This document shows, piece by piece, positions 10,031 to 55,065 of a stretch of DNA of 59,077 nt. How positions within the stretch are numbered: position 1 is the first letter of the stretch; every line of letters begins with the position of its first letter. The position numbers and the translations under genes are program-made. Location of the stretch: IMG/VR virus record IMGVR_UViG_3300032236_001008, positions 1 to 59,077 of that record; one strand, 5' to 3'. Under the pieces are notes generated by a model. That model saw only the letters and a list, made by a program, of their open reading frames with translations, was not told the origin of the DNA and made no database searches. This stretch comes from a virus (taxonomy: Duplodnaviria; Caudoviricetes).

Positions 10031-10071
10031 CCCCACCATTCACGCTATAATGGCGTGGAGAAGGAGCCCAA

Positions 10072-38574: not shown

Positions 38575-40898
38575 AACACGCCTTCTTCATCAATCACATG
38601 CTCATCCACATACTTTTGTGCCTTTTGATTGAGCTTGACACCACGATAGATATGTTTGCGTTGACCATTGGTTCTGACCAAGTCTGACTCTACCATATGT
38701 TCTTGGGTTGATGCAAGGAAGCGTCGTTTAAACGATTGCTCTGTACCAAACGGCATGTTCTTTTTAATTGCCCAGTGTTTAAAGCAAGCAAACACCTCGT
38801 CTTTGCCGACTGTTCCTTCAGGGTCAAACTCAAGGGCTTCATCAACAAACGCACCAAGGGGGTTACCAAGTTCTGCCATAACCTCAAGCAAGTCCTTACC
38901 GCTGTCAGGTTGCAAGAAGTATCCGCCACGTGCTATCCTGCGTTGTAGTCCTTCCATCGCCCAGTTAAATATGCCTGATAGTTCACTGGTTAGTTTGTGT
39001 GCCAGATCTGTATCTTCCTTGTTGTAGAAAGACTTAGTCATCTTTAACACAATCATACGACCAGTGAGTGCGTTGGAGTTCTCGGTTAGTTGAAGAACCT
39101 CGTTAGAATAAATAACAATCCGAGTAGGGAGATAGCCATTCCAAGCCTCTTTGTTTTTTCGGTTGACAGTAATGGTATCCCCGCCCACAATACGGAGCAG
39201 TTGAGATACAACAGAAGATCGATTGCGCTCAGGTGCTCTTGCATCAGTAAAAGAAGCGAGGAGCTTACCCAGCCAAGGCTGCAGACCAAAGGTATCACAT
39301 AATTCTCCTAATTCAGGTGCTACTGTGTTGTGTTGACCAAGCAGGCTGACTAGCACTTTGTTGATTGTGCCTTTGCCTGATCTGCGTGGGCCGATAATAT
39401 TAAAAAACTTCTGCTGGCGAGTGTCGCCCGACAAAATGTACCCAAACATCTCTTGCAAAGTATCTTGTGACTGTTTGTCTTCCGGCCAGACAGACTGCAA
39501 GAACGCATCCCATGTTGGGCAAGTAGCATTTGGGTCATAAGAGAACGGCAAAGAGTTCTGTGTATAAAAACCTAGTGAGTGTGGAATCATAACTTGGTCT
39601 TCTAAATGGAATAGACCATTCTCAAGGCTAATAAGTTTAGACGCATCAGGTTTGTTCAGCTTATACGAATCAAACCAAATAGGTGGTCTAGTGTTGGCAT
39701 GGTTGGGTAAGTGGACAATAGACTTGATCGCATCTAATGCACCTGATACGCTAGCTGGTGCTGGGTTAAATGGGATAAGTTCGCCCTTCTTGCCTGACTT
39801 CTTGCACTTGTCTAAAAACAGGTAAGTTTCAGAGCGAATGGTTGCTTCTTCAATAATCTCGTAGTGAGTGCCAACATACGCATAAAAGTCGTCTGAGTAG
39901 TGAACAAGGCGATAGCCTTCCTCGGTGACAAAATGATTCTCAAGAAATGTTCTAGCGTGGTTCATTGCTCCGTTGTCTAGTATGATCTCGCCACGTGCTA
40001 GGGCTTGCTTCCTCTCAACTTGGTTGATCTTAAATAACAGGGAACGCAAGGTTGCCCCTGAGCCTTTGAAGGTTGACCACTTCTTGTCACAAGCGTTGGG
40101 TGTGTAGTTAGGCACTGAGCCATCACCATATGACCACCTATCCCACAACTCTAAGGCTTCCATATCGCCTGAAAACTGGTGGTGTAGGGCAAATCCTACA
40201 TTGAGCCAGTTTGTGTAGCCTTCTGATGGGTCAAGGTTGGCAAGCACTTCTGTTTCTACACGATGCAGATCATACCCCTCGACAGGCGGTGAGTAGTCTG
40301 CAAAGGAATCGCCTGTGTTGCGTATTTCCCGATCGGGAATAACGCCACTTAAGTCTTGTAGGTCGTTGGGAACTACGCCACTGATGTGATGCCCTGTGAC
40401 TGTGAAATACCTACCTTTTGGATAAAACTCAAAACCTTTGTCGTGGTCGACATGGGAGTTATGGGTGTCCGCCCTTGTAAATATCTTCACTCCTGTGCCA
40501 GAAGGCGAAACCTCCATATATCCTTGCACAGATTGTGCAATTTGCTGCAGTGCAGCATCAGTGAAACTTTCAGTCTGATGGTCGTAGCAATCATCCAAAT
40601 CGATGCCTACTAGATTATCATCCCCGCTAAATACGAATCCTACGCCATCAAAGCGGTTTGGCTGATTGATATATGCATTTTGGACTGTCAGGAAGTCTGC
40701 CCATGTGTTTGGGTTGGTTGATGATGCTGATTGCCCTGATGCCTGTGTAGGCAGTTTAGACCATCTTTTGGTGGTTTCATCGCCAATTTCTACATATCGC
40801 CATAAAACCCATCTAGGAATCATCTTCAATTCCATGGGTATGTTGTCAAATTGGACTGGTAGTGTGTGTGGTTTTGTGTTCATAATCTTCATATGCAT
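38571..40898 (-). CDS. Primase-polymerase / PriCT-2 / D5-type SF3 helicase (P4 alpha-like)
   Basis: VGIDLDDC, EVSPSGTG, YFTVTG, WLNVGFALH..WDRWS, GPRRSGKGT Walker A. Confidence 0.88.
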   Translation of the reverse strand: MHMKIMNTKPHTLPVQFDNIPMELKMIPRWVLWRYVEIGDETTKRWSKLPTQASGQSASSTNPNTWADFLTVQNAYINQPNRFDGVGFVFSGDDNLVGIDLDDCYDHQTESFTDAALQQIAQSVQGYMEVSPSGTGVKIFTRADTHNSHVDHDKGFEFYPKGRYFTVTGHHISGVVPNDLQDLSGVIPDREIRNTGDSFADYSPPVEGYDLHRVETEVLANLDPSEGYTNWLNVGFALHHQFSGDMEALELWDRWSYGDGSVPNYTPNACDKKWSTFKGSGATLRSLLFKINQVERKQALARGEIILDNGAMNHARTFLENHFVTEEGYRLVHYSDDFYAYVGTHYEIIEEATIRSETYLFLDKCKKSGKKGELIPFNPAPASVSGALDAIKSIVHLPNHANTRPPIWFDSYKLNKPDASKLISLENGLFHLEDQVMIPHSLGFYTQNSLPFSYDPNATCPTWDAFLQSVWPEDKQSQDTLQEMFGYILSGDTRQQKFFNIIGPRRSGKGTINKVLVSLLGQHNTVAPELGELCDTFGLQPWLGKLLASFTDARAPERNRSSVVSQLLRIVGGDTITVNRKNKEAWNGYLPTRIVIYSNEVLQLTENSNALTGRMIVLKMTKSFYNKEDTDLAHKLTSELSGIFNWAMEGLQRRIARGGYFLQPDSGKDLLEVMAELGNPLGAFVDEALEFDPEGTVGKDEVFACFKHWAIKKNMPFGTEQSFKRRFLASTQEHMVESDLVRTNGQRKHIYRGVKLNQKAQKYVDEHVIDEEGVF

Positions 40899-40947: not shown

Positions 40948-41166
40948 TTGTCAGGGTAGTATGGGTTGTCAGGGTTTGATTTTTGTTCATTTTTCCATTT
41001 TTTCCTTTGCTTGACTCCAATAAAATCAACAACTTACTGATAAAATTGTCAGGGTAGTATGGGTAGTACCCCTCTAAATGACTTTTTTTTAGATTTTTTA
41101 AAAATAAAAATAAAATATTCTGAATGGACTTGACTTAGACCCTGACAACCCATACTACCCTGACAA
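40948..41166. repeat. Origin-like element 1: inverted TGTCAGGG/TAGTATGGG iteron arrays around an AT-rich core, plus IHF site
   Basis: 9-bp-period repeats facing each other; AATCAACAACTTA (41024-41036) matches WATCAANNNNTTR. Confidence 0.7.
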
Positions 41167-41176
41167 ATGATAACTT

Positions 41177-41371
41177 TTAGTTATATAGACTGTACCCTTT
41201 CCTAGCAATATGGTTATAAGCCCATTTTCTGAACTCTACCCGCTTTTCGGAGGTTTGCTCATCGTTTTCATCCCATTGGGCATCGATGATATGCTCCCCG
41301 TTGCCGTCGTGAAATTCAATCCGTAGCAAATTGCCGTCTTTGTCATAGACATCGGTTGGAATTGCCTTCAT
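41177..41371 (-). CDS. Hypothetical protein
   Basis: 64 aa, GGAG RBS. Confidence 0.5.
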   Translation of the reverse strand: MKAIPTDVYDKDGNLLRIEFHDGNGEHIIDAQWDENDEQTSEKRVEFRKWAYNHIARKGYSLYN

Positions 41372-41373
41372 AT

Positions 41374-41694
41374 TTACTCCTTTATCTTTGAATAACTGTC
41401 AACTACCCAACTAGACTTGTCTTCCCATGAGTCCTGTGTGCCATAATCACCCCTACTCATACGCATACGATCACGCTCTCTTTGTGGGGGTTCAATTGCC
41501 AGCCAGGCAGAGAACGCATCTTTATATTCCTGCCAATCGGGATTTGCTTCGTAAAATGGATGGTTAAATCCAGCCAAATCCACAGTAGATAGCACATCTG
41601 CCTGTCTAATCCACTTTTTTGCTCTTTTAACTATGCCCATCTTATTCCTTGCGGTTATATAGCGGTCATATGCTTTTTTCTGTTCTTCAGTCAT
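41374..41694 (-). CDS. Hypothetical protein
   Basis: 106 aa, GGAGG RBS. Confidence 0.5.
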   Translation of the reverse strand: MTEEQKKAYDRYITARNKMGIVKRAKKWIRQADVLSTVDLAGFNHPFYEANPDWQEYKDAFSAWLAIEPPQRERDRMRMSRGDYGTQDSWEDKSSWVVDSYSKIKE

Positions 41695-42274
41695 CGTTGC
41701 CTTCCTCCAAAAATTTCTCTTGTTTTAAATTGCTAAGTGATATCGGTTCTTTGCCGATATGTCCTTGTAATTGGCTTATCTTTGCTTCAGATATGCCCAT
41801 GATGGTGGCTAACTCTGACACTTTGGGTTCTCGCCCAAGTATTTGGGACAGATTACGCTTATTGTAGTTTAGCTTTTTAATCTGTTCCATGATGTTGATT
41901 GGTAAACGAATGATGTTTGCGGTATTGTCTAAATCCCTACGCACCCCTTTCTCGATGAACGACTTTGCGTATGTGGCAAATCTTGCGTTATTCGTAGGCT
42001 TCCATCTTTTGGCTGCCATAAACAATGCCTCATTACCCATCGCAAGGATATCCTCGACAGGCACTTTACTGTGATGCCAAGCAGTCATCTTACGCACGAC
42101 ATAAACCACAAAGCGTAAGTTATGGGTGATGAGTTTGTCTAACGCATCGTCATCACCCTTTTGTATCTGCTTGGCTAACTGATGTTCTTCCTCTATGGGT
42201 AAAGGTTCAACTCCATAGAGGGATTGTAAGTAATCGCTTAATAAATCATTTTCTTTCACCCGCGTTTCCTTCAA
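41687..42274 (-). CDS. Sigma-70 family factor with regions 1.2, 2 and 3 only (no region 4)
   Basis: DYLQSL..EEEHQLA..LITHNLRFVV..EDI..RFATYA..IIRLP..LGREPKVSELA..PISL then stop. Confidence 0.85.
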   Translation of the reverse strand: MKETRVKENDLLSDYLQSLYGVEPLPIEEEHQLAKQIQKGDDDALDKLITHNLRFVVYVVRKMTAWHHSKVPVEDILAMGNEALFMAAKRWKPTNNARFATYAKSFIEKGVRRDLDNTANIIRLPINIMEQIKKLNYNKRNLSQILGREPKVSELATIMGISEAKISQLQGHIGKEPISLSNLKQEKFLEEGNDD

Positions 42275-42406
42275 ATATTAACTGCAACAACTGTGGGAAA
42301 ACACATAATAGACCCCCAACAATCATAGCAATCAAGCCAAAAGTGATACCGCCCCCTGTTTCTATTGCACAAAAAGCGATAACAATAAATACGATTCCTA
42401 ACATTT

Positions 42407-42586
42407 TCATAGTGGTGATTCCTCTAAAAGTAATTTTGCCATTTCATACTGATTTGGCTGTGGTGGTAGTTTGACCAATTTTGCCCCATTGGTCAGGTAG
42501 GGTGTTGCTTCTGTTTTGCTTGCAAATTTCCTGATCGAATCTCCAAATTCGTCAATAAGTATAAATTTGTAGGCGGACTTTTTCAT
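42407..42586 (-). CDS. Small hypothetical protein
   Basis: 59 aa hand-translated, just downstream of TGGTATAAT. Confidence 0.45.
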   Translation of the reverse strand: MKKSAYKFILIDEFGDSIRKFASKTEATPYLTNGAKLVKLPPQPNQYEMAKLLLEESPL

Positions 42587-42592
42587 TTTTTA

Positions 42593-42601
42593 ATTATACC
42601 A
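42593..42601 (-). promoter_or_regulatory. Extended -10 host sigma70 promoter for the sigma-factor operon
   Basis: TGnTATAAT. Confidence 0.55.
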
Positions 42602-42744
42602 TAAAAGGTCAATTTGCCGAGTAAAATCAAAATGGGATAAGTCCTTTAAGGCGGAAAAAATTTTTTTATGCGTTCCCCCACCCTGTTTAAACTTACTGTG
42701 CATAGATACATATGTGTTTAAACGAGGTCGTAGGGTTAAAAAAA

Positions 42745-43095
42745 TTATTCAATGACATAGTAGGCACTATCTGATACTTTTTGACCCACACCCTCAATAG
42801 AATCCCCTATTTGACATATCTGCAATACTGCAATTCTCTCTTTAATCCACTTGGGCATATCCCCTATGTTTAAACGCGTTTTGCTGACTAAATTTTTTTC
42901 GTGGGCGGGCATGGCAAAACTATACAATGCGACTGTGCCATCATCATGGAATCTAACCCGCCACACCTGTTCAATGGTGCGGTGTAAATCCTCTGCAATC
43001 ATGCACAGATAATCTTCGGGTAGTAAGACAGGGCTATTGCCCTCCATGACGATATCGTCTATGCGGGCTATTGATACATTACTAATTATTGCCAT
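42745..43095 (-). CDS. Early hypothetical protein
   Basis: 116 aa; C-terminal domain similar to the 43508 ORF. Confidence 0.55.
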   Translation of the reverse strand: MAIISNVSIARIDDIVMEGNSPVLLPEDYLCMIAEDLHRTIEQVWRVRFHDDGTVALYSFAMPAHEKNLVSKTRLNIGDMPKWIKERIAVLQICQIGDSIEGVGQKVSDSAYYVIE

Positions 43096-43097
43096 GT

Positions 43098-43301
43098 TTA
43101 AACTGATCTCATTATGTCTGCTACTTCTTTGGTGATCTCTACATACGATTCAGTAGATACATTCAGCATTTTGTGGTGGTTATAACTCCACATATCAAAA
43201 CTGCGTGGCGGTTGTTCGTTGAAATCTAGCCAATCAGGTAGATCAGCAACTCCCACATCACCAAACTTCTTTCCCATCAGATATCTATACCTTGTGGACA
43301 T
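43098..43301 (-). CDS. Early hypothetical protein
   Basis: Ends ITKEVADIMRSV. Confidence 0.55.
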   Translation of the reverse strand: MSTRYRYLMGKKFGDVGVADLPDWLDFNEQPPRSFDMWSYNHHKMLNVSTESYVEITKEVADIMRSV

Positions 43302-43304
43302 TGT

Positions 43305-43523
43305 TTAAACACCTATCATTATATCAGCAACTTCTTTGGTTATCTTAACTATTTTATGATGTTCGGGGCGAATGGATTGATACGAATATGCATCATTATC
43401 AGCATCAACATACCATCGTAGGTCTATGATAAGCGGGTTATCTTGCACAATCTCATCGACCACGCAAAGATAACCCTCGTCATCAACTAATAACCAATCA
43501 CCAACTTTTAGGCGATTATCCAA
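43305..43523 (-). CDS. Early hypothetical protein
   Basis: Ends ITKEVADIMIGV. Confidence 0.55.
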   Translation of the reverse strand: MDNRLKVGDWLLVDDEGYLCVVDEIVQDNPLIIDLRWYVDADNDAYSYQSIRPEHHKIVKITKEVADIMIGV

Positions 43524-44344
43524 TATGCACCATCGTTTTCTTTTAGTCCAATATCTTCGACAAACTCTTGCTTATCGCCAATATCTAGCACAAACAGTTT
43601 ACCTTTGATGTTATCGGGTAATGCATCTTTAGATGGCACTTTAAATGGTTGCTCACCTTTGGTAGAGTTTAAACGATACTGCACTTCATTGTCTTTGACT
43701 AAAACAAAGTAGTGATCGGGGTCATAATTAGAATACTTGGCGATCTTCTCGGTGTTATCTACCAAATATAAGATCATCTTTTCAACTTTAGGATTCTGAA
43801 ACTTATGTCCCTGTTTGTGTAAGCCAATCAAATCTTCTGCAAATAACTGAATGTCATTACAAGTGTTGTTCCTGATCTCCCACCCCATGTTATATCCGAT
43901 TGCCTCCACCTCTTGCCTAAACTTTCGTCTTGCCCTGTCTGCAATCTGATCGAATGTAAATGGTTTAAACACTTTCTTTGCCACTCGCACAATGTTTTTA
44001 CTATGGATAGAGTATTTATACGCACCCTCACCCCCATATGTATGCCTACCATCAACAATATTTATGCTAGTGATGCCATACTTGGGTTTATGGGATTCGC
44101 TATTGTTGTAATAGTTTGATACCTCTAGCACACCAATATGATTGTTTAGATCACTAGAATGGAAAGCATATACCCCATCACAAACACCATTGGGGTATTC
44201 CTCTTTCACTATCCCCCATGTGTTTATGTTTTGGTGTTTAAACGAGATGTCGGGCATTACCTTAGCGATGTCGTTCATTAAGTTTGACAAATACTCTACT
44301 GTGTCAATACCATTGATGTTTACTGTTTTGATTTTGTTTGTCAT
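43508..44344 (-). CDS. Early hypothetical protein
   Basis: 278 aa ORF. Confidence 0.6.
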   Translation of the reverse strand: MTNKIKTVNINGIDTVEYLSNLMNDIAKVMPDISFKHQNINTWGIVKEEYPNGVCDGVYAFHSSDLNNHIGVLEVSNYYNNSESHKPKYGITSINIVDGRHTYGGEGAYKYSIHSKNIVRVAKKVFKPFTFDQIADRARRKFRQEVEAIGYNMGWEIRNNTCNDIQLFAEDLIGLHKQGHKFQNPKVEKMILYLVDNTEKIAKYSNYDPDHYFVLVKDNEVQYRLNSTKGEQPFKVPSKDALPDNIKGKLFVLDIGDKQEFVEDIGLKENDGAYWIIA

Positions 44345-44345
44345 G

Positions 44346-45293
44346 TTATCTATACCAATTCTTATATCTGTCGTGGGTTAATTGTCCAAGTGGCACTTCT
44401 GTTTTCTTACATGGTTTCACAATTCTAAATAGATCATTACAAATCTCTTTCGGCAATTTGTGTCGTTCATGTATTTGCTTTTCACCCGAGCCATAATATC
44501 TGTGGGTAATTTTATGCTTATAGCGTTCTACCATGTTTAACCATGAATCAGGCACATTACCATCTTGGGTTGGTTTAAACAATGCTATTGCCTCGTCTGC
44601 ATAAATCATTCGGTCATCATTACCAACAACTGCTTTATAAATTGGATTACCATACTCCCATTTATTTTCTACAATATCGCACATGATGTCATAGTATGCC
44701 ATGAATGGTTTGATGCTCTCACGCAACTGCTTAGTCTGTGTTCTATCTAGGGTGTGTTTAAACTCTCTGTGGACTACTAGCGGTAGCCAATGGTTTTCGC
44801 CCACCTTGCGTTGGAATGTAATATCCCCCAACTCAATCGAATAAAACTTATTGTCGTAGCGAACATACTTACTAGCACGATGGTTTACCATGCCAAAATC
44901 GGGCGGTAGGTTGAAATTGTAAAACCAAAATGTCGATGATGACGAAAATGCTCTTGGGTATAAATCCATTGATGGTGTTTGACCCCATACATTTTTAGGT
45001 GTATGGATTGTCATAAATTCCATGCCATTGTTTAAACTCCATGTGATCGCTTTGTTGTGGTTGTTGCGGTGTTGGTAATAGTCGAATGTAATGTAATACT
45101 CCGTATCGCTTACCTTTATCATGCGTTCCCATGCCCTATCTCTGCGGTTAATTGGGCGAATGTTTTGATCTTTGCGTTTACCACGCAAGGGTATTGTATC
45201 TTCGTATTGTTTTTGCACTTTGGCAAAATCATATCTACCACCTTGATTTTGTTGCACATCATACGGACTGCACGATTGTCTATAATATCCCAT
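44346..45293 (-). CDS. Early hypothetical protein
   Basis: ~315 aa; IPLRGKRK..IRPINRR N-terminal motif; GAGG RBS before the ATG at 45293. Confidence 0.6.
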   Translation of the reverse strand: MGYYRQSCSPYDVQQNQGGRYDFAKVQKQYEDTIPLRGKRKDQNIRPINRRDRAWERMIKVSDTEYYITFDYYQHRNNHNKAITWSLNNGMEFMTIHTPKNVWGQTPSMDLYPRAFSSSSTFWFYNFNLPPDFGMVNHRASKYVRYDNKFYSIELGDITFQRKVGENHWLPLVVHREFKHTLDRTQTKQLRESIKPFMAYYDIMCDIVENKWEYGNPIYKAVVGNDDRMIYADEAIALFKPTQDGNVPDSWLNMVERYKHKITHRYYGSGEKQIHERHKLPKEICNDLFRIVKPCKKTEVPLGQLTHDRYKNWYR

Positions 45294-45489
45294 CTTAATC
45301 CTCTCTTTCAATATCGTAAATTGCTAACCATTGTTTAAACACTTCGGGGTATGCCCCTTGAATCCAATCATATAAATGTATTGGGGGTGATTCGTTTTTG
45401 TGGAGATTGTGCAATCTTTCCTCGATCTGTTCATTCACCCACCAATCATCTTCGGGTTGATCACAAGGGTTGTCATATTCTCGCATTGT

Positions 45490-46674
45490 TTAAACCTCTA
45501 TCTTTATGGTTTGACCTATGGGCGATTTCACATCGCTACATATTGTCCACAAGGTAGGGCAATTCCATTGTCCACCCCAATCACTTCCTACATAGCCATC
45601 GGTAAGAATGATGGCACAAACAGGGTCAATCTTATGCTTACGCATATAGCGGGTGATACATGATGGGCTTGTGCCACCACCACCTTTGGGCTTGGTGCTA
45701 GATGTCATGCGGTCTGCATCGTTTAAACCATACACCTCATGCCCCGCCACATCACAATCCCAATACAGTAAATCTACCTGTTCAGGATTCATGTTCTGCA
45801 TGACACTTGCCACCTCACTAATGAATCGGTTTAACACCTCGCCATAAATACTGCCTGATGTGTCAATGGCAACAACAACTCTACCCATTGATTCACTTAT
45901 TGTAGATGGCATATAAATATCATGTTGTAGCCATCTGCGGTTAGGTTTTCGCCATGTTGAATCGTCTTTGCCTTGCGATACGCTAGATACAAACTCCCTA
46001 AGTGCCTCTTTCCAATCTACCTTTGCACTCATAAGATCGGTAAAACTGCGGTCAATGTTCCCACCAACTTTACCCGCTAAAATTGCACCTTGACGAATGG
46101 CTTGGTCAATCTCTTTGGCTAACTCGGTTTTCTCGGCATCGTTTAAACCATCTGCCCCCTCCCAATCGTGTTCATCAAATCCACCATCTGCGTTGGGGTT
46201 GTCGCATGGCTCACCACCATTACCTTTGGGTCTTGGCGGTTGTTGGGGTAGTAAAGCAAACACCTCGGCTGAGTTTAAACCACGAAACTTCTCATTGACC
46301 AATGCCCCATCGGGTAAGACTACAAATTTGTTTGACCTTTCCGATTCGTCTTTGATTTCAAGATTGATAACATAATCACAAGCCATGTTAGCCCTTTCGG
46401 GGTCTTGCTTGTGTAGGTGTTTCCATGTGAGTAAATGGCGATACATCTTGTGCTTAGCCTCATGCAAAATCAAGCCACGCAACTGCGGGTCGTTTAAACT
46501 CATTACAAAATCCCTACCAAACTTAACATCTTTACCATTGGTGCAAGCGGTTAGTGTCTTGTCATCTATCTTTGTTTCACCAATCATCAAGATACCCGAA
46601 TAGGCTACAAACTGCGGGGACTTCATTAAATCAATGTGGCATCTTTCAATGCGTTGTTCTGCGGTAAGTGTCAT
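45490..46674 (-). CDS. HExxH metallopeptidase-like plus VWA domain protein (DUF2201-type)
   Basis: TACTNG, LHEAKH, NMACDYVIN, VAIDTSGSI MIDAS, GGGGT, ILTDGY. Confidence 0.85.
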   Translation of the reverse strand: MTLTAEQRIERCHIDLMKSPQFVAYSGILMIGETKIDDKTLTACTNGKDVKFGRDFVMSLNDPQLRGLILHEAKHKMYRHLLTWKHLHKQDPERANMACDYVINLEIKDESERSNKFVVLPDGALVNEKFRGLNSAEVFALLPQQPPRPKGNGGEPCDNPNADGGFDEHDWEGADGLNDAEKTELAKEIDQAIRQGAILAGKVGGNIDRSFTDLMSAKVDWKEALREFVSSVSQGKDDSTWRKPNRRWLQHDIYMPSTISESMGRVVVAIDTSGSIYGEVLNRFISEVASVMQNMNPEQVDLLYWDCDVAGHEVYGLNDADRMTSSTKPKGGGGTSPSCITRYMRKHKIDPVCAIILTDGYVGSDWGGQWNCPTLWTICSDVKSPIGQTIKIEV

Positions 46675-46676
46675 GT

Positions 46677-46853
46677 TTAAACACTCCCCATCTGAAAGAG
46701 TTTAATTGCTTGTAGTGGGTCGGTTGCCATCATGGTAATGGTTTTCGGTTGCCATGATGTATCTACCAACTGCTCAAAACTAACTTCGTGCTTGGCATAT
46801 TCGTCAATGCTTTCCATGTCAATGCACCTTGCCATAATGTTTTTGGTTTCCAT
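46677..46853 (-). CDS. Small early ORF
   Basis: 58 aa hand-translated; stop lies inside GTTTAAAC. Confidence 0.45.
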   Translation of the reverse strand: METKNIMARCIDMESIDEYAKHEVSFEQLVDTSWQPKTITMMATDPLQAIKLFQMGSV

Positions 46854-47012
46854 GATTTATTCCTCGTCATCTTGGGTTAATCGTTCTGCCATGCCACGAA
46901 TAAAATCTTCGGGCAAGTATCTCATAAGTAAATCTACAAGGTAGGCGGTTTCCGAATCATAAAAATAATTTACAACTGCCTCTCTTTGGTTATCGGTTAG
47001 TCGTAGCATTGT

Positions 47013-47183
47013 TTAAACCCCCTCGCTTATCTCGTAGATTTCGCACTCAATCGTATCAACTTCGACACAATCGGGAATTGGGTTTACCATGTAAAGTTTA
47101 TCCAACTCTTGCCATGCTTGTTCCTCTGAATCGGCAACAACTGTGGTATAGATCGTGGCAACTTCTCTAAATGTGAATATCAT
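47013..47183 (-). CDS. Small acidic early ORF
   Basis: 56 aa hand-translated (VVADSEEQA); bounded by GTTTAAAC at both ends. Confidence 0.5.
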   Translation of the reverse strand: MIFTFREVATIYTTVVADSEEQAWQELDKLYMVNPIPDCVEVDTIECEIYEISEGV

Positions 47184-47185
47184 GT

Positions 47186-47374
47186 TTAAACCTCCATCAC
47201 TCTAACTCGATCACCCTCGATCACTACCTTTGCCTTACCCTCGCCAATTAGTTTAAAACCTAACTGTTGAACAATAATTGCCATCTTGTAGTGTTCCCCT
47301 TTGTGCCTGTAAAAAACTGCTAGGACTGTGGCTATCGTAGCCCATACCACTAAAAACAATTCACTCGATTCCAT
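47186..47374 (-). CDS. Small membrane-anchored early protein
   Basis: N-terminal TM; GAGG RBS. Confidence 0.5.
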   Translation of the reverse strand: MESSELFLVVWATIATVLAVFYRHKGEHYKMAIIVQQLGFKLIGEGKAKVVIEGDRVRVMEV

Positions 47375-47572
47375 AATTTTCCTCGTAGGTTAGATATGGT
47401 TTAAACACCTTGCACTTATCACCAAATACATAAAAGAGGGGGTTGGATTCTTTCACCAATTCCCGCTTTTCTTTGGCGGTCTGTGCTTGGGTCATGCGAT
47501 ATTGCAAAGACTGTTTAAACTCTTGCTCAATCTTGTTCACTCGCATTTTTAGACTGTATGTTCCCATTACTT

Positions 47573-48649
47573 TTAATTGCTCTGTGCGAAAAGATAATTG
47601 TTTGCGGTAGCCCATTTAATAAACCCCTGTGATGTGCCTACTGTTGTCTTTTTGCTTGTTCGCATAACGCTAGTAGCGAATAGCCCTTGTGCCTCTTTAC
47701 TTAGTCGGTTCATGTATTCAATCCACTTATTGATGTTGTCCTTTTCTACCTGTTGAATGGCTGAATAGACCAACATACAAACTGCACTAGCACTCTCAGG
47801 CACTTTCGTTTTGGTTGGCTCTTTGATGATCGCCTCCCATGTTGGCAACTCATCTGTTAATTGAATGATAGAGAGCATATCGTAAGTGGCTCGGTTGCCG
47901 ATTGTTCCTTTAAGTGCGTGTGCCATAGTGTCGATGCCTAGTGGCTTTGATTTTTTGATGATATCCGATGCCCTGTTTAAACTGCGTGGTGTGCAAAATG
48001 CGGGGCGGGGTGTTCGTGGGTCGTAGATGTATTCATTGTCTGATGCGTTGGTAAAATCTTCGAATGATGCCAACATCTGCGGAAATTGTTTTACTGTGAG
48101 TAATACTTCGGGGGCGATGTCGTTGTCTAAAGCCCATTCAATCCACTCATCTGCTGATGGTTTACGCACCTTAACCACGCTAATGCGGTTTCGTGCATGG
48201 GGTGGGAGATTATCGCCTATCGCCTCATTCGCTAAGTTTGTGGTAGCGAATACGATACTGCCCTCGGGTAATGAGTAAGTGCCTAGTTTTCTTTCCAACA
48301 TCAATCTAAGGCAAGCATTCATAACTGCCTTACTTGCTTTGCCGATCTCATCAAGCATTAAAACTATGGGCTTATCGTGGTGAAAGCCAAATTCCTCGTT
48401 GGGAATAAAACTACAAACTTCGGTGTCGTTTAAACTGCGTATCTTGGGGACTAAAAAATCCCCTACATCTTTAGTAGTCATATCACCATAACAGAAGTGA
48501 TGATTCGGTAGTTTAGATTTAAGGATAGATAGAATAGAGGACTTACCTATACCCATCTCGCCCTGTGCTAGGACTGTGGTTGTATCGCCAACTGCGAGGA
48601 TAAGGTCGGCGGTTTGTTGAAGTGAAAGCGATTTGTATAAATCAGTCAT
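47573..48649 (-). CDS. MoxR-like AAA+ ATPase
   Basis: GEMGIGKS Walker A, LMLDE Walker B, ATTN, NR, TPRSL. Confidence 0.85.
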   Translation of the reverse strand: MTDLYKSLSLQQTADLILAVGDTTTVLAQGEMGIGKSSILSILKSKLPNHHFCYGDMTTKDVGDFLVPKIRSLNDTEVCSFIPNEEFGFHHDKPIVLMLDEIGKASKAVMNACLRLMLERKLGTYSLPEGSIVFATTNLANEAIGDNLPPHARNRISVVKVRKPSADEWIEWALDNDIAPEVLLTVKQFPQMLASFEDFTNASDNEYIYDPRTPRPAFCTPRSLNRASDIIKKSKPLGIDTMAHALKGTIGNRATYDMLSIIQLTDELPTWEAIIKEPTKTKVPESASAVCMLVYSAIQQVEKDNINKWIEYMNRLSKEAQGLFATSVMRTSKKTTVGTSQGFIKWATANNYLFAQSN

Positions 48650-48766
48650 GTGTTGCCTTTCTTTGGTCGATTGTTTTACTGCTGAAAACTTGGATTATAT
48701 AAATCAGGGGCAAAACAAAATACTAGGAATAACCCCAATAATAAAATGGTGCATAAAATATCGTCT

Positions 48767-48952
48767 TTACTCATGGTGTTTAAACTCCCTTATCCAATCA
48801 ATGTAAACTTTATCAAGATCAAGCCATTGTGCCATTCGTTTTCTGTTGGGTTTATCAATGGGGTAAATCAATAGAATCTCATTACCTACTCGTTTTAAGT
48901 AGTAATAAAATTCGGGCTTGTCGGGCTTGCGATATAACTTAATCACTTGCAT
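48767..48952 (-). CDS. Small early protein
   Basis: 61 aa; start adjacent to GTTTAAAC. Confidence 0.45.
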   Translation of the reverse strand: MQVIKLYRKPDKPEFYYYLKRVGNEILLIYPIDKPNRKRMAQWLDLDKVYIDWIREFKHHE

Positions 48953-49249
48953 TGTTTAAACACCCTCTAAATATTTAATGTTGGTGATTGTGGTGCTATG
49001 CGTATCAGGAAAGCGGATAGTAGCCCACTCCCCTGATATGCTCACGATCTCAACAAGATCAAGCCCGCACCACATGGCTAGATCGCCCCTACTCATGGTT
49101 TTCACCCAATACAAACCCGAGGGTAAAGCAAGCCAACACAAGCCCAACAACTGCCCACAAAGGGGTTTGTTCTATAACTGCCTGAATACATAAAACGGCT
49201 AATGTGATGATAATAGATAAAATGCCTACGAATAAATTGTTCATGTTGT

Positions 49250-49492
49250 TTAAACACTCCCTAAAAGATTGTCAAAATATGTTTGTGGTTGTTCGGTTGC
49301 CTTTGCACCATCTAGCCATTTATTGATATGGCGGGAGGTTGTCATACTCCATTTTTTAGCGGTGCGGTTAAATGAATAAGTGCCTTTATCAAAACTTGCG
49401 ACAGGTGTTGCATAGCTAAACAATACAATGTGTTTAGGGGTTTCTAATAGGGTCATATTAGAGGCGATAGGTTTTACTGATAAGTTTGTCAT
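49250..49492 (-). CDS. Early phage protein
   Basis: VLFSYATPVA..KWSMTTSRHINKWL motif. Confidence 0.6.
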   Translation of the reverse strand: MTNLSVKPIASNMTLLETPKHIVLFSYATPVASFDKGTYSFNRTAKKWSMTTSRHINKWLDGAKATEQPQTYFDNLLGSV

Positions 49493-49540
49493 AATGTTTT
49501 TTCCTTGTTTAAACAAGGGGGCGGGATTGCCCCCTTATGG

Positions 49541-49744
49541 TTAGATTGTTGGTTTGCCTAGCATCTGTGCCAATTCATTGTAAACAGATTCTCTAGTGCC
49601 TTTCAAGCCCAATTCCTTTTTGATTAGGCTATACATGGTCATGCCCCGAGATACTTTTAAGCCCTTAATTTCAAGCCCTAAGCCCCGCAAAATGGTCATG
49701 TAGCGGAATTGGTTTATCTGTGTTGGGTTGGTGATCATTGTCAT
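49541..49744 (-). CDS. Early phage protein
   Basis: LGLEIKGLKVSRG..YSLIKKELGLKG. Confidence 0.55.
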   Translation of the reverse strand: MTMITNPTQINQFRYMTILRGLGLEIKGLKVSRGMTMYSLIKKELGLKGTRESVYNELAQMLGKPTI

Positions 49745-49746
49745 GT

Positions 49747-50103
49747 TTAAACACTCCATTCGTTGATTGGGTATTGATCGGGATTGGCGAGGGTTAGCCC
49801 CTCAATGGCGGGTATGTTAGTGCCGATATGGTTATCATAAAACGAACCCCTCGGGGATTGATACACAATGGCATCACGATACACAATGCCCTTACTATCA
49901 CCTAGCACAAATCGCCCTGATAGTTTGCCTTTGCTTGCTTGGGTGTCGCTAGATGTTGCACCCGATCTAAAGTGCATCTTTGCATTGGCTTTGTCGCTAT
50001 CAAAATGCCAATATGGTTTGTAGGCAAACATCGCAACATTGGCGGGCTTGCCATCGCTACACAATACAGTCTTAGCGGTGATTCTATATACATATGTTCC
50101 CAT
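49747..50103 (-). CDS. Early hypothetical protein
   Basis: 118 aa, AAGGA RBS. Confidence 0.55.
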   Translation of the reverse strand: MGTYVYRITAKTVLCSDGKPANVAMFAYKPYWHFDSDKANAKMHFRSGATSSDTQASKGKLSGRFVLGDSKGIVYRDAIVYQSPRGSFYDNHIGTNIPAIEGLTLANPDQYPINEWSV

Positions 50104-50157
50104 TGTTCTATTTCCTTTGTAGGTTAGTGATCAATTAAGTGGAATATCCACACTCAA

Positions 50158-50186
50158 ATTAGATCAAATTCGGGTGGGTGTGTAAA
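50158..50186 (-). promoter_or_regulatory. Host sigma70-type early promoter
   Basis: TTTACA-17-TCTAAT with TG extension, followed by GTGGA-TAT-TCCAC palindrome. Confidence 0.55.
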
Positions 50187-50397
50187 GCGATTCTTTATAT
50201 CTATTAGTAATAAAACAACGGGCTTTTATACTAAGGGTTTACCCTCGAAAATCGAGATCGTGTATGGTCTAACCCTAACCCACACACTCGCCACGAAAGA
50301 GGCTAAAAAGGGGCTTAAAATGGCTCTAAATTGATTGGGGTATTATGGCGGGTTGGTGGATTTTGGCGGGGTGGTTGTTTAAACATATGAGAGGGGC

Positions 50398-50427
50398 AAA
50401 AAAAAAATCGGGGCATAAAGCCCCGAT
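50398..50427 (-). terminator. Rho-independent terminator
   Basis: ATCGGGGC-TTTAT-GCCCCGAT followed by a long U-run on the minus strand. Confidence 0.7.
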
Positions 50428-50684
50428 CTGTTTAACCCTTGCGGGCTAGATTCGCACTTGTGCGATTATGGTCATACCCTCTAGGTATTGAGCAAACTCT
50501 TTAGCACTCTTTAGAGTTTTAAACTCATAAACTTTATGGGCGGTTTTGATTGTGTATTTATATTTAGGTTTCGCCCTTGCCTTGAGGGTTTTAGCACTTG
50601 GGAACATATCGGTATGTTTTAACATGGTTTATTTTCCTTTGGTAGTTTAAACATGGGGGCGGTTTGCCCCCTTGCGGGGTTGGC

Positions 50685-51311
50685 TTATTCCTCGCCCTCA
50701 TCTTTGCCCTCGAGGGGTAGAAAATCGTGGGTCATATCGCCATGACCTAGCGGGCATCGTGGTGTTGCAAGTTTTAGCCACTTGCTAGATATCCGCATGG
50801 TGTAGCCACAAGCATAGCAATCACACTTGTGTAAGCGGGTGGATTGCTTTCTCATGTTTACCTGTAATGATTCATGGGGATATTCACCCGCCTCGCTAAC
50901 CCATTGGGCTAGTAATACTTTGAGGGATTCACTAGCATTGGTGCTAGTGGGTTTGCCCTCTAATCCAACAGCATAGGCACAATTCTCAAATACCTTGCCA
51001 TGACCCTCGTTTAAACCTACTGTCGCATGGCATAGCTCATGGATAAGGGTGTCTAATACTTCGATACTATTGGATTCGTTAGGCACGATCACGATTTCAA
51101 AATTGCGGTGATTGCCTTGTGAATCGGTATTGCTCATACATTGACCCGCTACGAATCGTTTTTGACCCTTGCGTTTAAATGCCCCTTTAGTGCTAAATGA
51201 ACATGAGAATTTAATATCCTCGGGGATTGTGTAGCCCTTAGATTCAAACATGGGCTTAATGAATTGCTCAGTCATATGGTTGAGCCATGATTCTCTATTA
51301 AGTAATTGCAT
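50685..51311 (-). CDS. SprT-like zinc metalloprotease with C-terminal Zn ribbon
   Basis: LIHELCH..GHGKVF; CxCxxC..CPxGH. Confidence 0.75.
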   Translation of the reverse strand: MQLLNRESWLNHMTEQFIKPMFESKGYTIPEDIKFSCSFSTKGAFKRKGQKRFVAGQCMSNTDSQGNHRNFEIVIVPNESNSIEVLDTLIHELCHATVGLNEGHGKVFENCAYAVGLEGKPTSTNASESLKVLLAQWVSEAGEYPHESLQVNMRKQSTRLHKCDCYACGYTMRISSKWLKLATPRCPLGHGDMTHDFLPLEGKDEGEE

Positions 51312-51627
51312 GGTGTTCTATTCCTATCTATTAGTGGTTAGTAATCATGTGGAAAATCCACACCTAATACTCTCATGGTTTAAACAACATTAGGATAGGG
51401 ATATACCCTTAAGGGTTTACCCTATTAGGGTTTACCCTCGAAAATCGAGATCGCAACCCCTCCGATACCTATACCCCATCGGGGGCGAAAACGGCTAAAA
51501 AGCCCCTTAAAACGATTCCTATTGGATTCTCATAATGTGGAATGGCTAGGGGTGCGGGCTTGCGTAATAACCCTATAAACTAAAGGGATAAACCCTCACA
51601 CCCTCGCACCCGCATAGCCCTATCACC

Positions 51628-51822
51628 TATGTTGCACCGCACCATATAACCACATTGGCATTATGGTTATGTTGCACCGCACCATATTGCCCGCCCTGTT
51701 TAAACACCCACCCATATAACCATATTGGCATTGTGGTTATTATGTTGCACCGCACAATGGCGTATCGGATATGTTGCACCGCACAAAGACCTTACTGCCA
51801 TTGTGGTTATGTTGCACCGCAC
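51628..51822. repeat. 5 x TATGTTGCACCGCAC direct repeats
   Basis: Copies at 51628, 51668, 51741, 51770 and 51808; irregular spacers. Confidence 0.9.
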
Positions 51823-51982
51823 CATGCGTTTCACATTATGAGATTAGATTCCACAATGCGGAATAGGGGGCTTAACTTGTGAGGCGATACCCCTTTATGC
51901 AGACCCCCACCCCCCTCGGCCCGGGGGCCCCACAAAGCTCAAGTTTTTATAAAACCGCATTTTTAAAATTTTTTTGTAAAAA

Positions 51983-52368
51983 TTGTCAGGGTTGTCAGGG
52001 TTTGCTTTTTAAATTGTCAGGGTTTAATTTTTGCATTTTGTAAAATTTTTTTGTAAATTTTTTAAATAAATCAATAACTTACAAGCGCAATTAACCTACA
52101 CCCCTGATTCCGCCGTGAAAGTGTTTGATCTTATTAGATAAAGTGTTAAAATTGTCAGGGTAGTATGGGTAGTACCCCTCTATATCACTTTATTTTAAAA
52201 TTTTAAAAAATAAAAAATAAATATTATGGAGTAAGTACGTTTAGACCCTGACAACCCATACTACCCTGACAATTGGTTGCTAAGTTGTTGATTCATATAG
52301 GGCCAAATAAGAATTATTCTCAATAAAGTGCTAAAACCAAACCCTGACAACCCATACTACCCTGACAA
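51983..52368. repeat. Origin-like element 2 (iterons, AT core, two IHF sites)
   Basis: 36-bp and 32-bp blocks identical to element 1 with the same 94-bp offset; IHF consensus at 52069-52081 and 52281-52293. Confidence 0.7.
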
Positions 52369-52380
52369 TTTTGGGTCATG

Positions 52381-52411
52381 GGGCGTAAAACCCCCAGTTT
52401 TTGCATTAGTA
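52381..52411 (+). promoter_or_regulatory. Phage promoter GGGCG-N16-TGCATTAGTA
   Basis: Exact motif; ATG 5 nt downstream. Confidence 0.75.
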
Positions 52412-52416
52412 AGTCT

Positions 52417-52722
52417 ATGAATGATTACGCATATCAAATCAAAGGAGCGTTGGAAAACGCTCAGGGCCAATTCATTGGTCTGCGAGTATTGGTTTGTGAC
52501 ATCAATAACTTTGAAATCGTGGATGTACCGGTGGAAGTCTTGGATAAAGAGACCACCAAGTATTTGCAATACCGCCTCAAAGTTACAGACGTGATAGATA
52601 TCCAGCGCTTACCTATCCCTGTTCAGAACAGAATACGCGCTCCGTTAGGGAGATGGCTCGACTACTGGGTCGTAAAAAACTTTTATGGCAATTCTATCGA
52701 ACGAAAAAGTACTAACTCTTGA
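52417..52722 (+). CDS. Hypothetical protein (probably leaderless)
   Basis: MNDYAYQIKG..; ATG directly after the promoter. Confidence 0.55.
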   Translation: MNDYAYQIKGALENAQGQFIGLRVLVCDINNFEIVDVPVEVLDKETTKYLQYRLKVTDVIDIQRLPIPVQNRIRAPLGRWLDYWVVKNFYGNSIERKSTNS

Positions 52723-53629
52723 TTATTGGAAACCTGCATCTAAACTGCAAGTAGGCGATTACGTATTTGACCAGTCCGGCACCCCGGTCCAAATTAAACT
52801 GGTTCAAGAGTATCGCGCCCAATCTTGCTATGAGGTAACGTTTAATGATCACCTGCGCATATCAGGAGACGATAAGCTGGGTTTTCTTATGGAAACTCCA
52901 AAGTATCGCAAAAGAACATACGAATATAAACGTGTCCAGCCATTTAGGCGCCCGTTAAAACCATTTACTGTATCCCAGTTAGACTTACTGGAACTTAGGG
53001 ACCACAGAAAAAGGTTAATATTTTCCATACCCACTGCTAAACCATTAGCACTCCCCCACCAAGATTTACCGATACCACCATTTATCTTTGGTCTTTGGTT
53101 TTTTAATAGAAAACCATTAAACCAATCTGACTTTATTGTTGATAAGTTTAAAGATTATGGGTATAAGATTGACAAGAATGGCAATATAACGCCATCTATT
53201 ACCCAGCAGCTGGCACCCAATATCCCAACAACCATTCCGTCAAACTATTTACTAGCTTCCCCGGAGCAACGTACGGAATTATTGTCTGGCATACTGCATT
53301 CTAAGTCACGCCAATATCATGCCAAAGACGATAGATTTAGATTTTCTTCTAGCCACTATGGTACAATACTACAGATACAAGGATTAGTTGAATCATTAGG
53401 ACACAGATCAAGATTATCGTTTGATGAAACGTACAAGTATTACACCATTTCGTTTAAATCACGTACCAAATTAATGGAAGAGCAAAAGTCTCCGCCAATT
53501 AAGGTACACCAAGCTCGCCGATACGTAACCAAGATTGATTCCATACCAAATCAATCTTGCATACACATTGAAACTAATGGCAAAGACAACACGATTCTTG
53601 TAGGAGAAGGATTTATAGCATGCCGTTAA
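52685..53629 (+). CDS. Free-standing intein-like protein (Hint plus degenerate LAGLIDADG)
   Basis: Block A-like AILSNEKVLT..LQVGDYVFDQSG; IPSNYLLASPEQRTELLSGIL; block F/G-like CIHIE..LVGEGFIACR. Confidence 0.7.
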   Translation: MAILSNEKVLTLDYWKPASKLQVGDYVFDQSGTPVQIKLVQEYRAQSCYEVTFNDHLRISGDDKLGFLMETPKYRKRTYEYKRVQPFRRPLKPFTVSQLDLLELRDHRKRLIFSIPTAKPLALPHQDLPIPPFIFGLWFFNRKPLNQSDFIVDKFKDYGYKIDKNGNITPSITQQLAPNIPTTIPSNYLLASPEQRTELLSGILHSKSRQYHAKDDRFRFSSSHYGTILQIQGLVESLGHRSRLSFDETYKYYTISFKSRTKLMEEQKSPPIKVHQARRYVTKIDSIPNQSCIHIETNGKDNTILVGEGFIACR

Positions 53630-55065
53630 CAGATAAACAACAAGCAACATTAGAAAAATTTGCTGCTGTCAACAAACATTGGCCTAAACAACAACTAGAA
53701 GCCGCAATATGGCAAGTAAAATGGGCGCTACAAGCCCTACCACACCAACAGGAGCCAGAAGATGGCGAATATGATACCTTTCTTATGCTTGCCGGTCGTG
53801 GATCGGGTAAGACGCATACTGCCAGCCATTGGATTGGCATTCGCGCTTGGCGTTATGACAATACCCGCTGGCTCGTCACTGCCCCCACTTCCAACGACAT
53901 ACGAGCAACTTGTTTTGAAGGAGACTCTGGACTCCTTAACATCATCCCAAAGTCCCTTATTAGGGATTACAACAAATCCTTATTTGAAATCACCCTTACA
54001 AACGGCTCCCTCATCCAAGGAATCCCAGGCTCAGAGCCAGAACGTTACCGCGGTAAACAATACCACGGCGCATGGTTCGACGAGCTGTGCGCTTTTGACT
54101 ACATCGATGATGCGTATGATGGTGTTCAGTTCACGTTGCGTCTTAGAGACCCTAGAATCCCAAGAGTCCAACAGATTATTACAACAACGCCAAAGCCAAA
54201 AGAGCTCATCGTCGACCTTAACGAAGGAAAAATCGGCGGGGACGTCTATGTGGCCAATGCGTCCTCCTACGACAACCGTGCCAACCTCTCAGAAACGTTT
54301 TTCAAACAATTAGAAACGTACGATGGCACCGACATTGGTAGGCAGGAGATCTATGGCGAGATTCTTGACCCAGAGCAAGCTGGTATTATCAAGCGTAAGC
54401 AGTTTCGTTTATGGCCGGCCAATAAGCCAACGCCAAATCTAGAATACATTATTGCCTCGTACGACCCCGCTACCTCAGAAAAAACCATGAACGACCCAAC
54501 GGCATGCACAATATGGGGCGTGTTTGAACAAACCGACGCTGGTACAGCCATTATCCTTTTGGATGCATGGGACGCGCATTTGTCATACCCAGAGCTACGC
54601 CGCAAAGTTATTGAAGATTTTAAAGAAGTTGTGTACGGCGCCGATAATGACTTTGGTAAAGGCCGTAAAGCAGACCTAATTCTCATGGAAGATAAGTCTG
54701 CTGGTATTTCTCTCATACAAGAGCTGCAAGGTGCTGGTGTACCGGTGCGTGGGTACAACCCAGGGCGCGCAGATAAGGTCCAGCGTTTAAACATTGTGGC
54801 ACCATTAGTTGCTAAAGGTAAAGTATGGATACCAGAAGATAGCAAAATAAAAGGTGAGTTTGCCGATTGGGCAAAAAGGTTCCTAAGACAAGTATGTTCG
54901 TTTCCAGAAGCCGGAGGGCATGATGATTATGTAGACTCTTTGTCACAAGCGCTACGTGTTTTGCGTGATTCTGGATGGATACAGCTTGATTATCTGCCAG
55001 CAAGGGATTATAGTTATGCAGATGATGATTATGGCAAGAAGTTTACCAATCCGTACGCCCAGTAG
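53620..55065 (+). CDS. terL: Terminase large subunit
   Basis: AGRGSGKT Walker A, AWFDE Walker B, TTTP, SYDPA and HDDYVDS nuclease motifs. Confidence 0.93.
   Translation: MPLTDKQQATLEKFAAVNKHWPKQQLEAAIWQVKWALQALPHQQEPEDGEYDTFLMLAGRGSGKTHTASHWIGIRAWRYDNTRWLVTAPTSNDIRATCFEGDSGLLNIIPKSLIRDYNKSLFEITLTNGSLIQGIPGSEPERYRGKQYHGAWFDELCAFDYIDDAYDGVQFTLRLRDPRIPRVQQIITTTPKPKELIVDLNEGKIGGDVYVANASSYDNRANLSETFFKQLETYDGTDIGRQEIYGEILDPEQAGIIKRKQFRLWPANKPTPNLEYIIASYDPATSEKTMNDPTACTIWGVFEQTDAGTAIILLDAWDAHLSYPELRRKVIEDFKEVVYGADNDFGKGRKADLILMEDKSAGISLIQELQGAGVPVRGYNPGRADKVQRLNIVAPLVAKGKVWIPEDSKIKGEFADWAKRFLRQVCSFPEAGGHDDYVDSLSQALRVLRDSGWIQLDYLPARDYSYADDDYGKKFTNPYAQ

Follow-up and report, generated by a model that had tools for sequence, protein, structure and literature searches.

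The stretch analysed here is an entire IMG/VR virus record of 59,077 bp from a tailed phage (IMGVR_UViG_3300032236_001008; Duplodnaviria, Caudoviricetes; classed as linear, with an estimated completeness of 91%), which we call the window. One block of early genes in it has been purged of many short, mostly palindromic words that remain common everywhere else. The purged stretch is the first 10-11 kb of a leftward early/replication gene block and adjoins the terminase genes. A set of 13 words (CCAG/CTGG, ACGT, GTAC, GCGC, GGCC, CCGG, AGCT, GTNAC, GCNGC, GGNCC, ACSGT and CASTG) occurs twice in 42013-51917, compared with 21-81 times per kb in the remaining window. The words are short and mostly palindromic, they were removed synonymously, the set of words varies among close relatives, and the purge stops with the module; taken together, these features bear the signature of restriction endonucleases selecting against sites in the DNA of this block only. 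Our preferred reading, to which we assign a probability of roughly 0.6 on the strength of the analyses below, is that restriction-site avoidance is confined in this phage to the DNA that enters or acts first.

Expected counts for 41575-51915 were derived from the rate in the remainder of the window (Table 1). A preliminary description of this DNA, made by eye, had reported GGCC, CCGG, GCGC, GTAC and ACGT as missing from about 41.2 to 51.9 kb and frequent elsewhere; all five counts proved to be zero, against expectations of 16.6-36.9. The description had also placed about three copies of AGCT in the block, and we found exactly three (at 41871, 49414 and 51034). GATC, which it had noted as persisting, is present in 34 copies spread over 42533-51449, and CATG, TGCA, CTAG, TTAA and AATT are likewise not depleted. 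Maximal-order Markov models estimated from region 41575-51915 itself still predicted 10-34 copies of the missing words, while the structural, replication and packaging blocks of the remaining genome lie near Markov expectation for the same words. A profile of word-set density along the window confirmed the depletion. As a separate observation, TCGA and CGCG are both scarcer than expected in 1-39000, outside the early block; the structural block holds 12 copies of TCGA, where 91 (zero-order) or 22 (Markov) would be expected, and TCGA is relatively commoner inside the early block.

We compared the block with a codon-preserving null, consisting of 300 synonymous-codon shuffles of 23 early ORFs (open reading frames) in which the proteins and the block's own codon usage were kept. 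Mean counts in the shuffled sequences (minima in brackets) were 38.6 (23) for CCAG, 23.8 (12) for GTAC, 17.6 (9) for GCGC, 17.3 (6) for GGCC and 13.4 (6) for ACGT. Each of these words was observed zero times, and no shuffle reached zero for any of them, the fewest being six. Therefore, the absence resides in the arrangement of codons and not in composition or codon bias. Longer words behaved similarly: GTNAC, ACSGT and CASTG are absent from the block, with 44, 16 and 20 copies expected from the rest of the window and 17.5, 13 and 10 from the shuffles, and GCNGC occurs once (50 and 9.7 expected). Counts of further longer words in the block were 0 for GGNCC, 1 for CCNGG, 1 for GASTC and 2 for CGNCG; the W-centred words ACWGT, CAWTG and GAWTC are not depleted. 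The avoidance of restriction sites thus held under composition, Markov and codon-preserving nulls.

The preliminary description had proposed selection against restriction-type targets in general, and this part is borne out by the predominance of palindromes of 4-5 bp, by their removal at the level of codons and by word sets that vary between lineages. Its more specific attributions were not upheld. Nothing points to the 6-bp asymmetric sites that a link to the defence systems BREX or DISARM would predict, and recognition of CCWGG does not explain the loss of CCAG, as all CCAG and CTGG are gone and not CCWGG alone. CCAG/CTGG is an asymmetric four-base word, and we could not assign its loss to a known specificity.

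The two edges of the purge differ. On the right it ends abruptly at 51918, as had been noted by eye: the first sites of the word set lie at 51918-51936, and the density is 37 per kb at 52-53 kb. Individual words return at 51918 (GGCC), 51921 (CCGG), 52085 (GCGC), 52172 (GTAC) and 52237 (ACGT). On the left the edge is graded: the density of the word set climbs from 6 sites per kb at 41-42 kb to 12 at 40-41 kb and 21 at 39-40 kb. The nearest GTAC on this side is at 41192, and the copies of CCAG that flank the block lie at 41570 and 52394 with no CTGG anywhere in 41000-52500, in agreement with the CCAG/CTGG-free interval of about 41575-52390 described before. For four words the absence was as described and the gaps were wider, with left limits inside the primase gene at 39993 (ACGT), 39225 (GCGC), 39484 (GGCC) and 39482 (CCGG).

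We next placed the purge in the gene map, for which a simple ORF map was combined with PHROG and Pfam scans. The window consists of two diverging gene blocks. The plus-strand block begins with a terS-like ORF (start at 52378), continues with the large terminase and the portal protein, and then with tail and virion proteins at 1-24092. Genes on the minus strand run from 51311 down to 24093. Their leading part comprises about 25 mostly small ORFs, and past these come a primase-helicase, a helicase, a gp2.5-like single-strand-binding protein, an exonuclease, a ribonucleotide reductase and a family A DNA polymerase. From 51.9 kb the early genes all point leftwards, and the terminase block runs off in the other direction. 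The sharp start of the purge, its graded end, a sigma factor gene at the distal end and the junction shared with the terminase block all fit a staged exposure of the DNA.

To compare related phages, we retrieved 32 IMG/VR loci with the sigma gene. There is no close cultured relative: the best terminase identity is 41-42%, to Caulobacter phages, and primase identity is below 30%; a search of the block's DNA against a phage collection, in near and distant modes, gave no matches. Four primase relatives (L044-L047) fall in bins labelled uncultured betaproteobacterium (two), Gammaproteobacteria (one) and Lishizhenia (one), a weak hint as to hosts. Modules were typed by combining gap statistics and observed/expected tables with a gene-presence matrix. 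Near-copies were counted once (L004 with L003; L007-L009 with L010; L013 with L014; L016 and L017 with L015; L022 with L023), and L030 (not tabulated) and L018 and L021 (too little block) were left out of the type counts. Modules of type A carry genes for a SprT-like protein, a small conserved ORF, an ATPase, a DUF2201 protein and conserved proteins of 321 and 278 amino acids (aa), and are 9.7-13 kb long in loci where both ends are seen. Type A was purged in all 12 of the distinct loci that could be assessed (the window, L002, L003, L011, L014, L019, L020, L023, L024, L025, L029 and L033). Four further partial loci, L005, L006, L031 and L032, each with 2.5-4.8 kb of block, are also purged, and their module type is not assignable.

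The purge repertoire varies between lineages, close relatives included. Within type A, GCGC is retained in L019, L020, L023 and L033, and GTAC in L011, L020, L023 and L024. ACGT is purged almost always. Strong purging of CCAG is seen in the window, L003 and L024, and purging of GATC in the partial locus L032 alone.

Modules of type B lack the cassette and are shorter, at 7.1-7.8 kb where both ends are seen (L010 and L026-L028). Five of the six distinct type-B loci (L010, L012, L015, L026, L027 and L028) have no purged word; the other, L015, has two, ACGT and ACSGT. GCGC, GGCC and CGCG are commoner in type-B modules than in their own flanks. The type-B block of the L010 lineage includes a C5 cytosine DNA methylase (L010, 10844-12004). 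The L010 and L026 modules begin with a GP88-family (PF17338) gene. That the purge occurs only with the conserved cassette, and that one unpurged module has a methylase, also fit a staged exposure.

The relatives bear on whether the purge reflects current selection or history. A type-A module might have come from another lineage with genome-wide avoidance and been moved by recombination. The A/B label changes at least four times on a quick primase tree, which indicates that modules are exchanged between backbones, and the close primase sisters L011 (type A) and L012 (type B) differ in both module and purge; both points speak for an inherited composition. The switches on the tree are exchanges of homologous DNA and not independent origins of the purge. 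Yet the word sets vary among type-A modules, and the depletion extends into the primase gene of the backbone. The sigma gene, common to both types, is depleted in type A only: it carries 1-11 target words per 585 nt in type-A loci, with 2 in the window, and 6-23 in type-B loci (Mann-Whitney p=0.004, among loci that are related and hence non-independent). A complete absence over 10 kb would also be expected to decay quickly without purifying selection. We consider inherited composition distinctly unlikely as the explanation.

Selection confined to the early DNA can be accommodated by the following scheme, in which we infer when each part of the DNA enters, where the genome ends and which early proteins protect the rest. 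The block would be the early module, dependent on the host's polymerase, of an uncultured tailed phage. Restriction enzymes in the host population would have removed nearly all copies of at least 12 target words from this module only. The early DNA would enter first, from a genome end near 51.9 kb, or would have to stay intact first, and would be transcribed leftwards. Its products would then render the remaining genome insensitive to restriction, and the later DNA would therefore need no site avoidance and shows none. Finally, the sigma factor encoded at the far end would switch on the replication and structural genes. Candidates for the protective role are the SprT-like protease, the pair of ATPase and VWA-peptidase that resemble gp24 and gp25 of phage N4, and the 321-aa and 278-aa proteins.

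The purge might instead preserve the integrity of the early transcription unit in a genome with no ordered entry, if late cuts could be repaired once early proteins were made and early cuts were lethal. Under this explanation the match between the purge and the early block, from the upstream repeats to the sigma gene, would follow, the gp2.5-like annealing protein and exonuclease of the phage could rejoin fragments, and a circular or permuted genome would be compatible with the closure of a complete relative described below. However, the purge of four words runs 0.9-1.7 kb beyond the block into the primase gene, and the late DNA shows no depletion at all, so late cuts would have to be almost free of cost. 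Any cut exposes ends to host exonucleases, which would consume the early unit too. We regard this explanation as unlikely, although it is the strongest of the alternatives to a purge of the DNA that enters or acts first.

On our preferred reading, a purge of early DNA alone pays only if some early function protects the rest, and the cassette is therefore the prime candidate. We tentatively raise the possibility, a long shot at present, that the cassette, made up of the SprT-like protease as first gene, the gp24/gp25-like pair and the 321-aa and 278-aa proteins, is a new kind of broad-spectrum anti-restriction machine which lets a lineage other than T5 use staged entry. It could, for instance, remove host nucleases from DNA or degrade them there, whatever sequence they recognise. 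If so, about 55 kb of the genome could stay full of target sites, and the long-unexplained gp24/gp25 pair of N4 would gain a function.

The early proteins are listed in Table 1. Among relatives, the SprT-like gene occurs in type A only. The ATPase was identified solely through phrog_1297, its AAA_5 match of 20.3 bits being under the cut-off of 22, and is 77-94% identical across 11 distinct type-A relatives. The gp24/gp25 naming of the ATPase/DUF2201 pair was taken from the annotation of Achromobacter phage JWAlpha; many N4-like phages have a homologue of the DUF2201 protein, and the pair is annotated there as gp24-like/gp25-like. The PHROG label for the DUF2201 protein's family is 'HNH endonuclease'; the Pfam scan gave DUF2201_N and DUF2201 only. 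The 321-aa and 278-aa proteins both gave confident fold models; a protein atlas search with them gave no usable lead, and the 278-aa model, the only one searched against a viral structure library, matched uncharacterised proteins of uncultured phages only. The sigma factor matched Pfam region 2 at 25.9 bits (cut-off 24) and region 3 at 34.4 bits (cut-off 25.3); regions 1.2, 2 and 3 are present, with no match to region 4. Among the scanned proteins of the window there was no match to an RNA polymerase, the sigma factor being present instead, and the window gave no match to a C5, N6/N4 or D12 DNA methylase.

The phage might also have purged its early DNA in self-protection, if one or more of its own early nucleases cut host DNA at these words and later DNA were protected otherwise. 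This logic has been proposed for T5, whose A1 nuclease would degrade host DNA while early DNA is protected by the loss of sites (preprint 10.1101/866236), and several early ORFs here are without known function. But the early ORFs scanned yielded no nuclease domain, and the late DNA is full of the same words. More than ten word families that vary between close relatives would require many changing specificities. We find this explanation very improbable, the least likely of those considered.

Several observations weigh against restriction-site avoidance in first-entering DNA. No match to a known anti-restriction family (Ocr, ArdA or similar) was found among 25 early ORFs searched against Pfam and 19 against PHROGs, and fold searches with the 321-aa and 278-aa proteins were uninformative. 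The preliminary description had predicted anti-defence genes among these ORFs, and a conserved cassette does accompany the purge. Sites for GGCC, CCGG, GTAC and ACGT remain in the non-coding stretch at 51.9-52.3 kb, and a consensus sigma-70 scan at the proposed leading end gave no convincing promoter. Type-B modules are found at the equivalent position, flanked by brackets of like kind, and are nevertheless unpurged; therefore, position alone is not enough to bring about a purge. Cassette and purge may be linked through joint inheritance with the module and not through function. The genome ends of relatives are a further point. Complete relatives are about 66-68 kb long, and one of them, G002 (66,261 bp), closes through an overlap of 64 bp that lies some 30 kb from the block; such a closure is consistent with a circular assembly and would be so, too, with headful packaging of a circularly permuted genome. 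Contig ends were considered as physical termini and rejected, since low-complexity sequence and repeats explain the breaks. A poly-A tract of 20-30 nt within the upstream bracketing element coincides with contig ends in G001 (both ends), L015, L016, L017, L019 and L023, and probably marks an assembly break and not a genome end. L003 starts just ahead of the G/C-rich element, and L011 starts inside the tandem repeats.

G002 also shows how specific the signal is. Gaps of about 10 kb in ACGT, GCGC, GGCC and CCGG coincide in one place only, in the same module adjoining the terminase genes, and the second-largest gaps are 2.5-4.8 kb. The 68-kb record G001 (L040-L043) was kept out of this argument. 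At about 46-56 kb in G001 the longest gaps of many unrelated 4-mers coincide; this stretch contains no N and may be a strongly biased or repetitive segment.

The block is accompanied by distinctive non-coding elements. At the abrupt start of the purge lies a G/C-rich element which, together with an A/T-rich leader, recurs in L003, L015, L019 and L020. Upstream of the first early gene, the TGTTGCACCGCAC core is found within the window only at 51609-51825 and is repeated at the equivalent place in L003 and L011; these tandem repeats are a candidate array of early promoters or operators. The block is enclosed by two copies of a bracketing element of about 130 bp, both in the same orientation and each with inverted arms around an A/T-rich spacer. 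The exact 10-mer TTGTCAGGGT occurs in 13 copies in the window, all confined to the two bracketing clusters. An additional left arm copy at 40948-40975 faces the primase gene; on the right, extra arms are found at 51983-52023 and, facing the terS-like ORF, at 52341-52370. Relatives keep the bracket, with arms built of other, lineage-specific short iterated units. Conceivable roles for these elements are those of an origin, of a packaging or stop signal, or of binding sites for a regulator. Promoters for the phage sigma factor are a doubtful assignment, as the arms are lineage-specific while the sigma factor is 57-86% conserved. In appearance the arms are closer to sites for a DNA-binding protein that evolves rapidly, at an origin or a packaging or stop signal. 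An Rfam scan gave sub-threshold hairpin matches to microRNA models at the repeats and nothing else.

Table 1. Features of the early block and its flanks, and counts of short words in 41575-51915 (expected counts from the rate in the remainder of the window; pLDDT, predicted local distance difference test).
Feature	Position	Strand	Evidence or detail
Purged early-gene block, ~25 ORFs	41200-51917	-	read leftwards from 51.3 kb; word counts, shuffles, profile
D5/P4-type primase-helicase	38571-40898	-	PHROG, Pfam; initial 0.9-1.7 kb without ACGT, GCGC, GGCC, CCGG
Left bracketing element	41039-41172		inverted arms of TTGTCAGGGT-type units around A/T-rich spacer
Phage sigma-70-family factor (195 aa), last sizeable gene of block	41687-42274	-	PHROG, Pfam; orthologues in 32/32 related loci
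Conserved cassette protein, 278 aa	43508-44344	-	no family; model pLDDT 89; no PDB match at E<=0.001
Conserved cassette protein, 321 aa	44346-45311	-	no family; model pLDDT 81; no PDB match at E<=0.001
Metallopeptidase + VWA-like protein (394 aa), N4 gp25-like	45490-46674	-	DUF2201_N 87 bits, DUF2201 60.6 bits, both above cut-offs
MoxR-type AAA+ ATPase (358 aa), N4 gp24-like	47573-48649	-	phrog_1297 E=2.8e-50
Strong intrinsic-terminator-like hairpin within early block	50405-50429	-	10-bp stem with 6 GC pairs, then T run
SprT-like metalloprotease (208 aa), first early gene	50685-51311	-	PF10263 25.9 bits (cut-off 25.6); phrog_6361 E=8e-37
Five tandem ~37-nt units containing TGTTGCACCGCAC	51609-51825		upstream of first early gene
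G/C-rich element at abrupt purge start	51905-51935		first GGCC and CCGG sites; conserved in L003, L015, L019, L020
Right bracketing element	52145-52278		orientation same as left element
terS-like ORF + large terminase, start of diverging late block	52378-55065	+	normal word frequencies
CCAG/CTGG	41575-51915		observed 0, expected 115.6
ACGT	41575-51915		observed 0, expected 36.5
GTAC	41575-51915		observed 0, expected 36.9
GCGC	41575-51915		observed 0, expected 32.7
GGCC	41575-51915		observed 0, expected 21.4
CCGG	41575-51915		observed 0, expected 16.6
AGCT	41575-51915		observed 3, expected 51.3
CAGC/GCTG	41575-51915		observed 12, expected 119.9
ACGG/CCGT	41575-51915		observed 5, expected 46.0

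Two features of genes outside the block deserve mention in their own right. The large terminase is split over two overlapping ORFs, 52685-53629 (N-terminal ATPase part) and 53620-55065 (C-terminal nuclease part). Three relatives carry the latter part as an open frame of 493-497 aa, and Caulobacter phage RW encodes the two in distinct genes on either side of a methyltransferase gene. Among the replication genes lies a beta-ketoacyl synthase-like protein at 33612-34721, above Pfam cut-offs, and beside it a small ORF (34718-35017) that weakly resembles a phosphopantetheine-binding carrier domain (18.3 bits against a cut-off of 20.8); the pair is unusual cargo for a phage. A scan of the window found no tRNAs.

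If the DNA that enters or acts first is indeed the DNA under selection, the window shows the evolutionary outcome of restriction pressure on first DNA, with more than ten words lost over about 10 kb in a widespread uncultured lineage. The purged block would mark the likely leading end of the genome, readable from sequence alone, and the list of missing words would be a readout of the restriction repertoire met by the phage. The comparison of purged modules, which have the cassette, with unpurged modules, one of which has a methylase, points to a small number of candidate general anti-restriction genes. A windowed scan for the longest gaps in short palindromes could offer a route to staged-entry phages and new counter-defence genes in metagenomes.

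The principle behind this reading is already known. T5 and BF23 are open to restriction at sites in the first-transferred region alone, and unknown early functions protect everything else (PMC10644984; preprint 10.1101/866236). For Murciavirus, PMC12455610 likewise describes restriction only through motifs in the early-injected region, and its authors predict that selection concentrates on the first-injected segment. A purge of an early block of the present kind was not found in the literature searched.

The block resembles the first-step-transfer DNA of T5 and BF23 in being an early-gene block of about 10 kb; that of T5 adjoins the genome end, and here such an end is predicted. Both also have a distal non-coding stretch rich in direct and inverted repeats, and the injection stop signal of T5 is annotated at 9140-10149. 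The analogy with T5 drawn in the preliminary description does not extend to homology: none of the 16 first-step-transfer proteins of T5, among them A1, A2 and dmp, matches the window (best E 0.12). In contrast to the block described here, the first-transferred segment of T5 has no 4-mer with a count of zero and no purge of palindromes. A sigma factor closes the block here, while a long terminal repeat and two-step transfer are features of T5. Neither T5 (first 50 kb) nor JWAlpha (left 30 kb), the two controls used, has comparable coincident gaps.

With Murciavirus and T7-like phages (Autographiviridae), the window shares early genes that are co-directional from the leading end, which is proposed here. 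In Murciavirus, single Type I motifs were demonstrated by escape mutants, whereas many words of 4-5 bp are involved here; these phages also have their own RNA polymerase, where the window has a sigma factor and no Ocr-like match. N4-like phages (Schitoviridae) have the homologous pair of ATPase and VWA-metallopeptidase among their early or middle genes, and their early genes and terminase-led late block diverge from one junction, as in the window. Unlike N4, there is no ORF for a giant virion RNA polymerase in the window or in the complete G002, whose largest ORF has 939 aa, and the left 30 kb of the N4-like JWAlpha lack the gaps seen here. Finally, the purge resembles the genome-wide avoidance of palindromes in phages, in that short palindromic targets are depleted through synonymous choices. 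In contrast to that avoidance, it is restricted here to about one sixth of the genome and has a sharp edge, with the rest of the genome at expectation.

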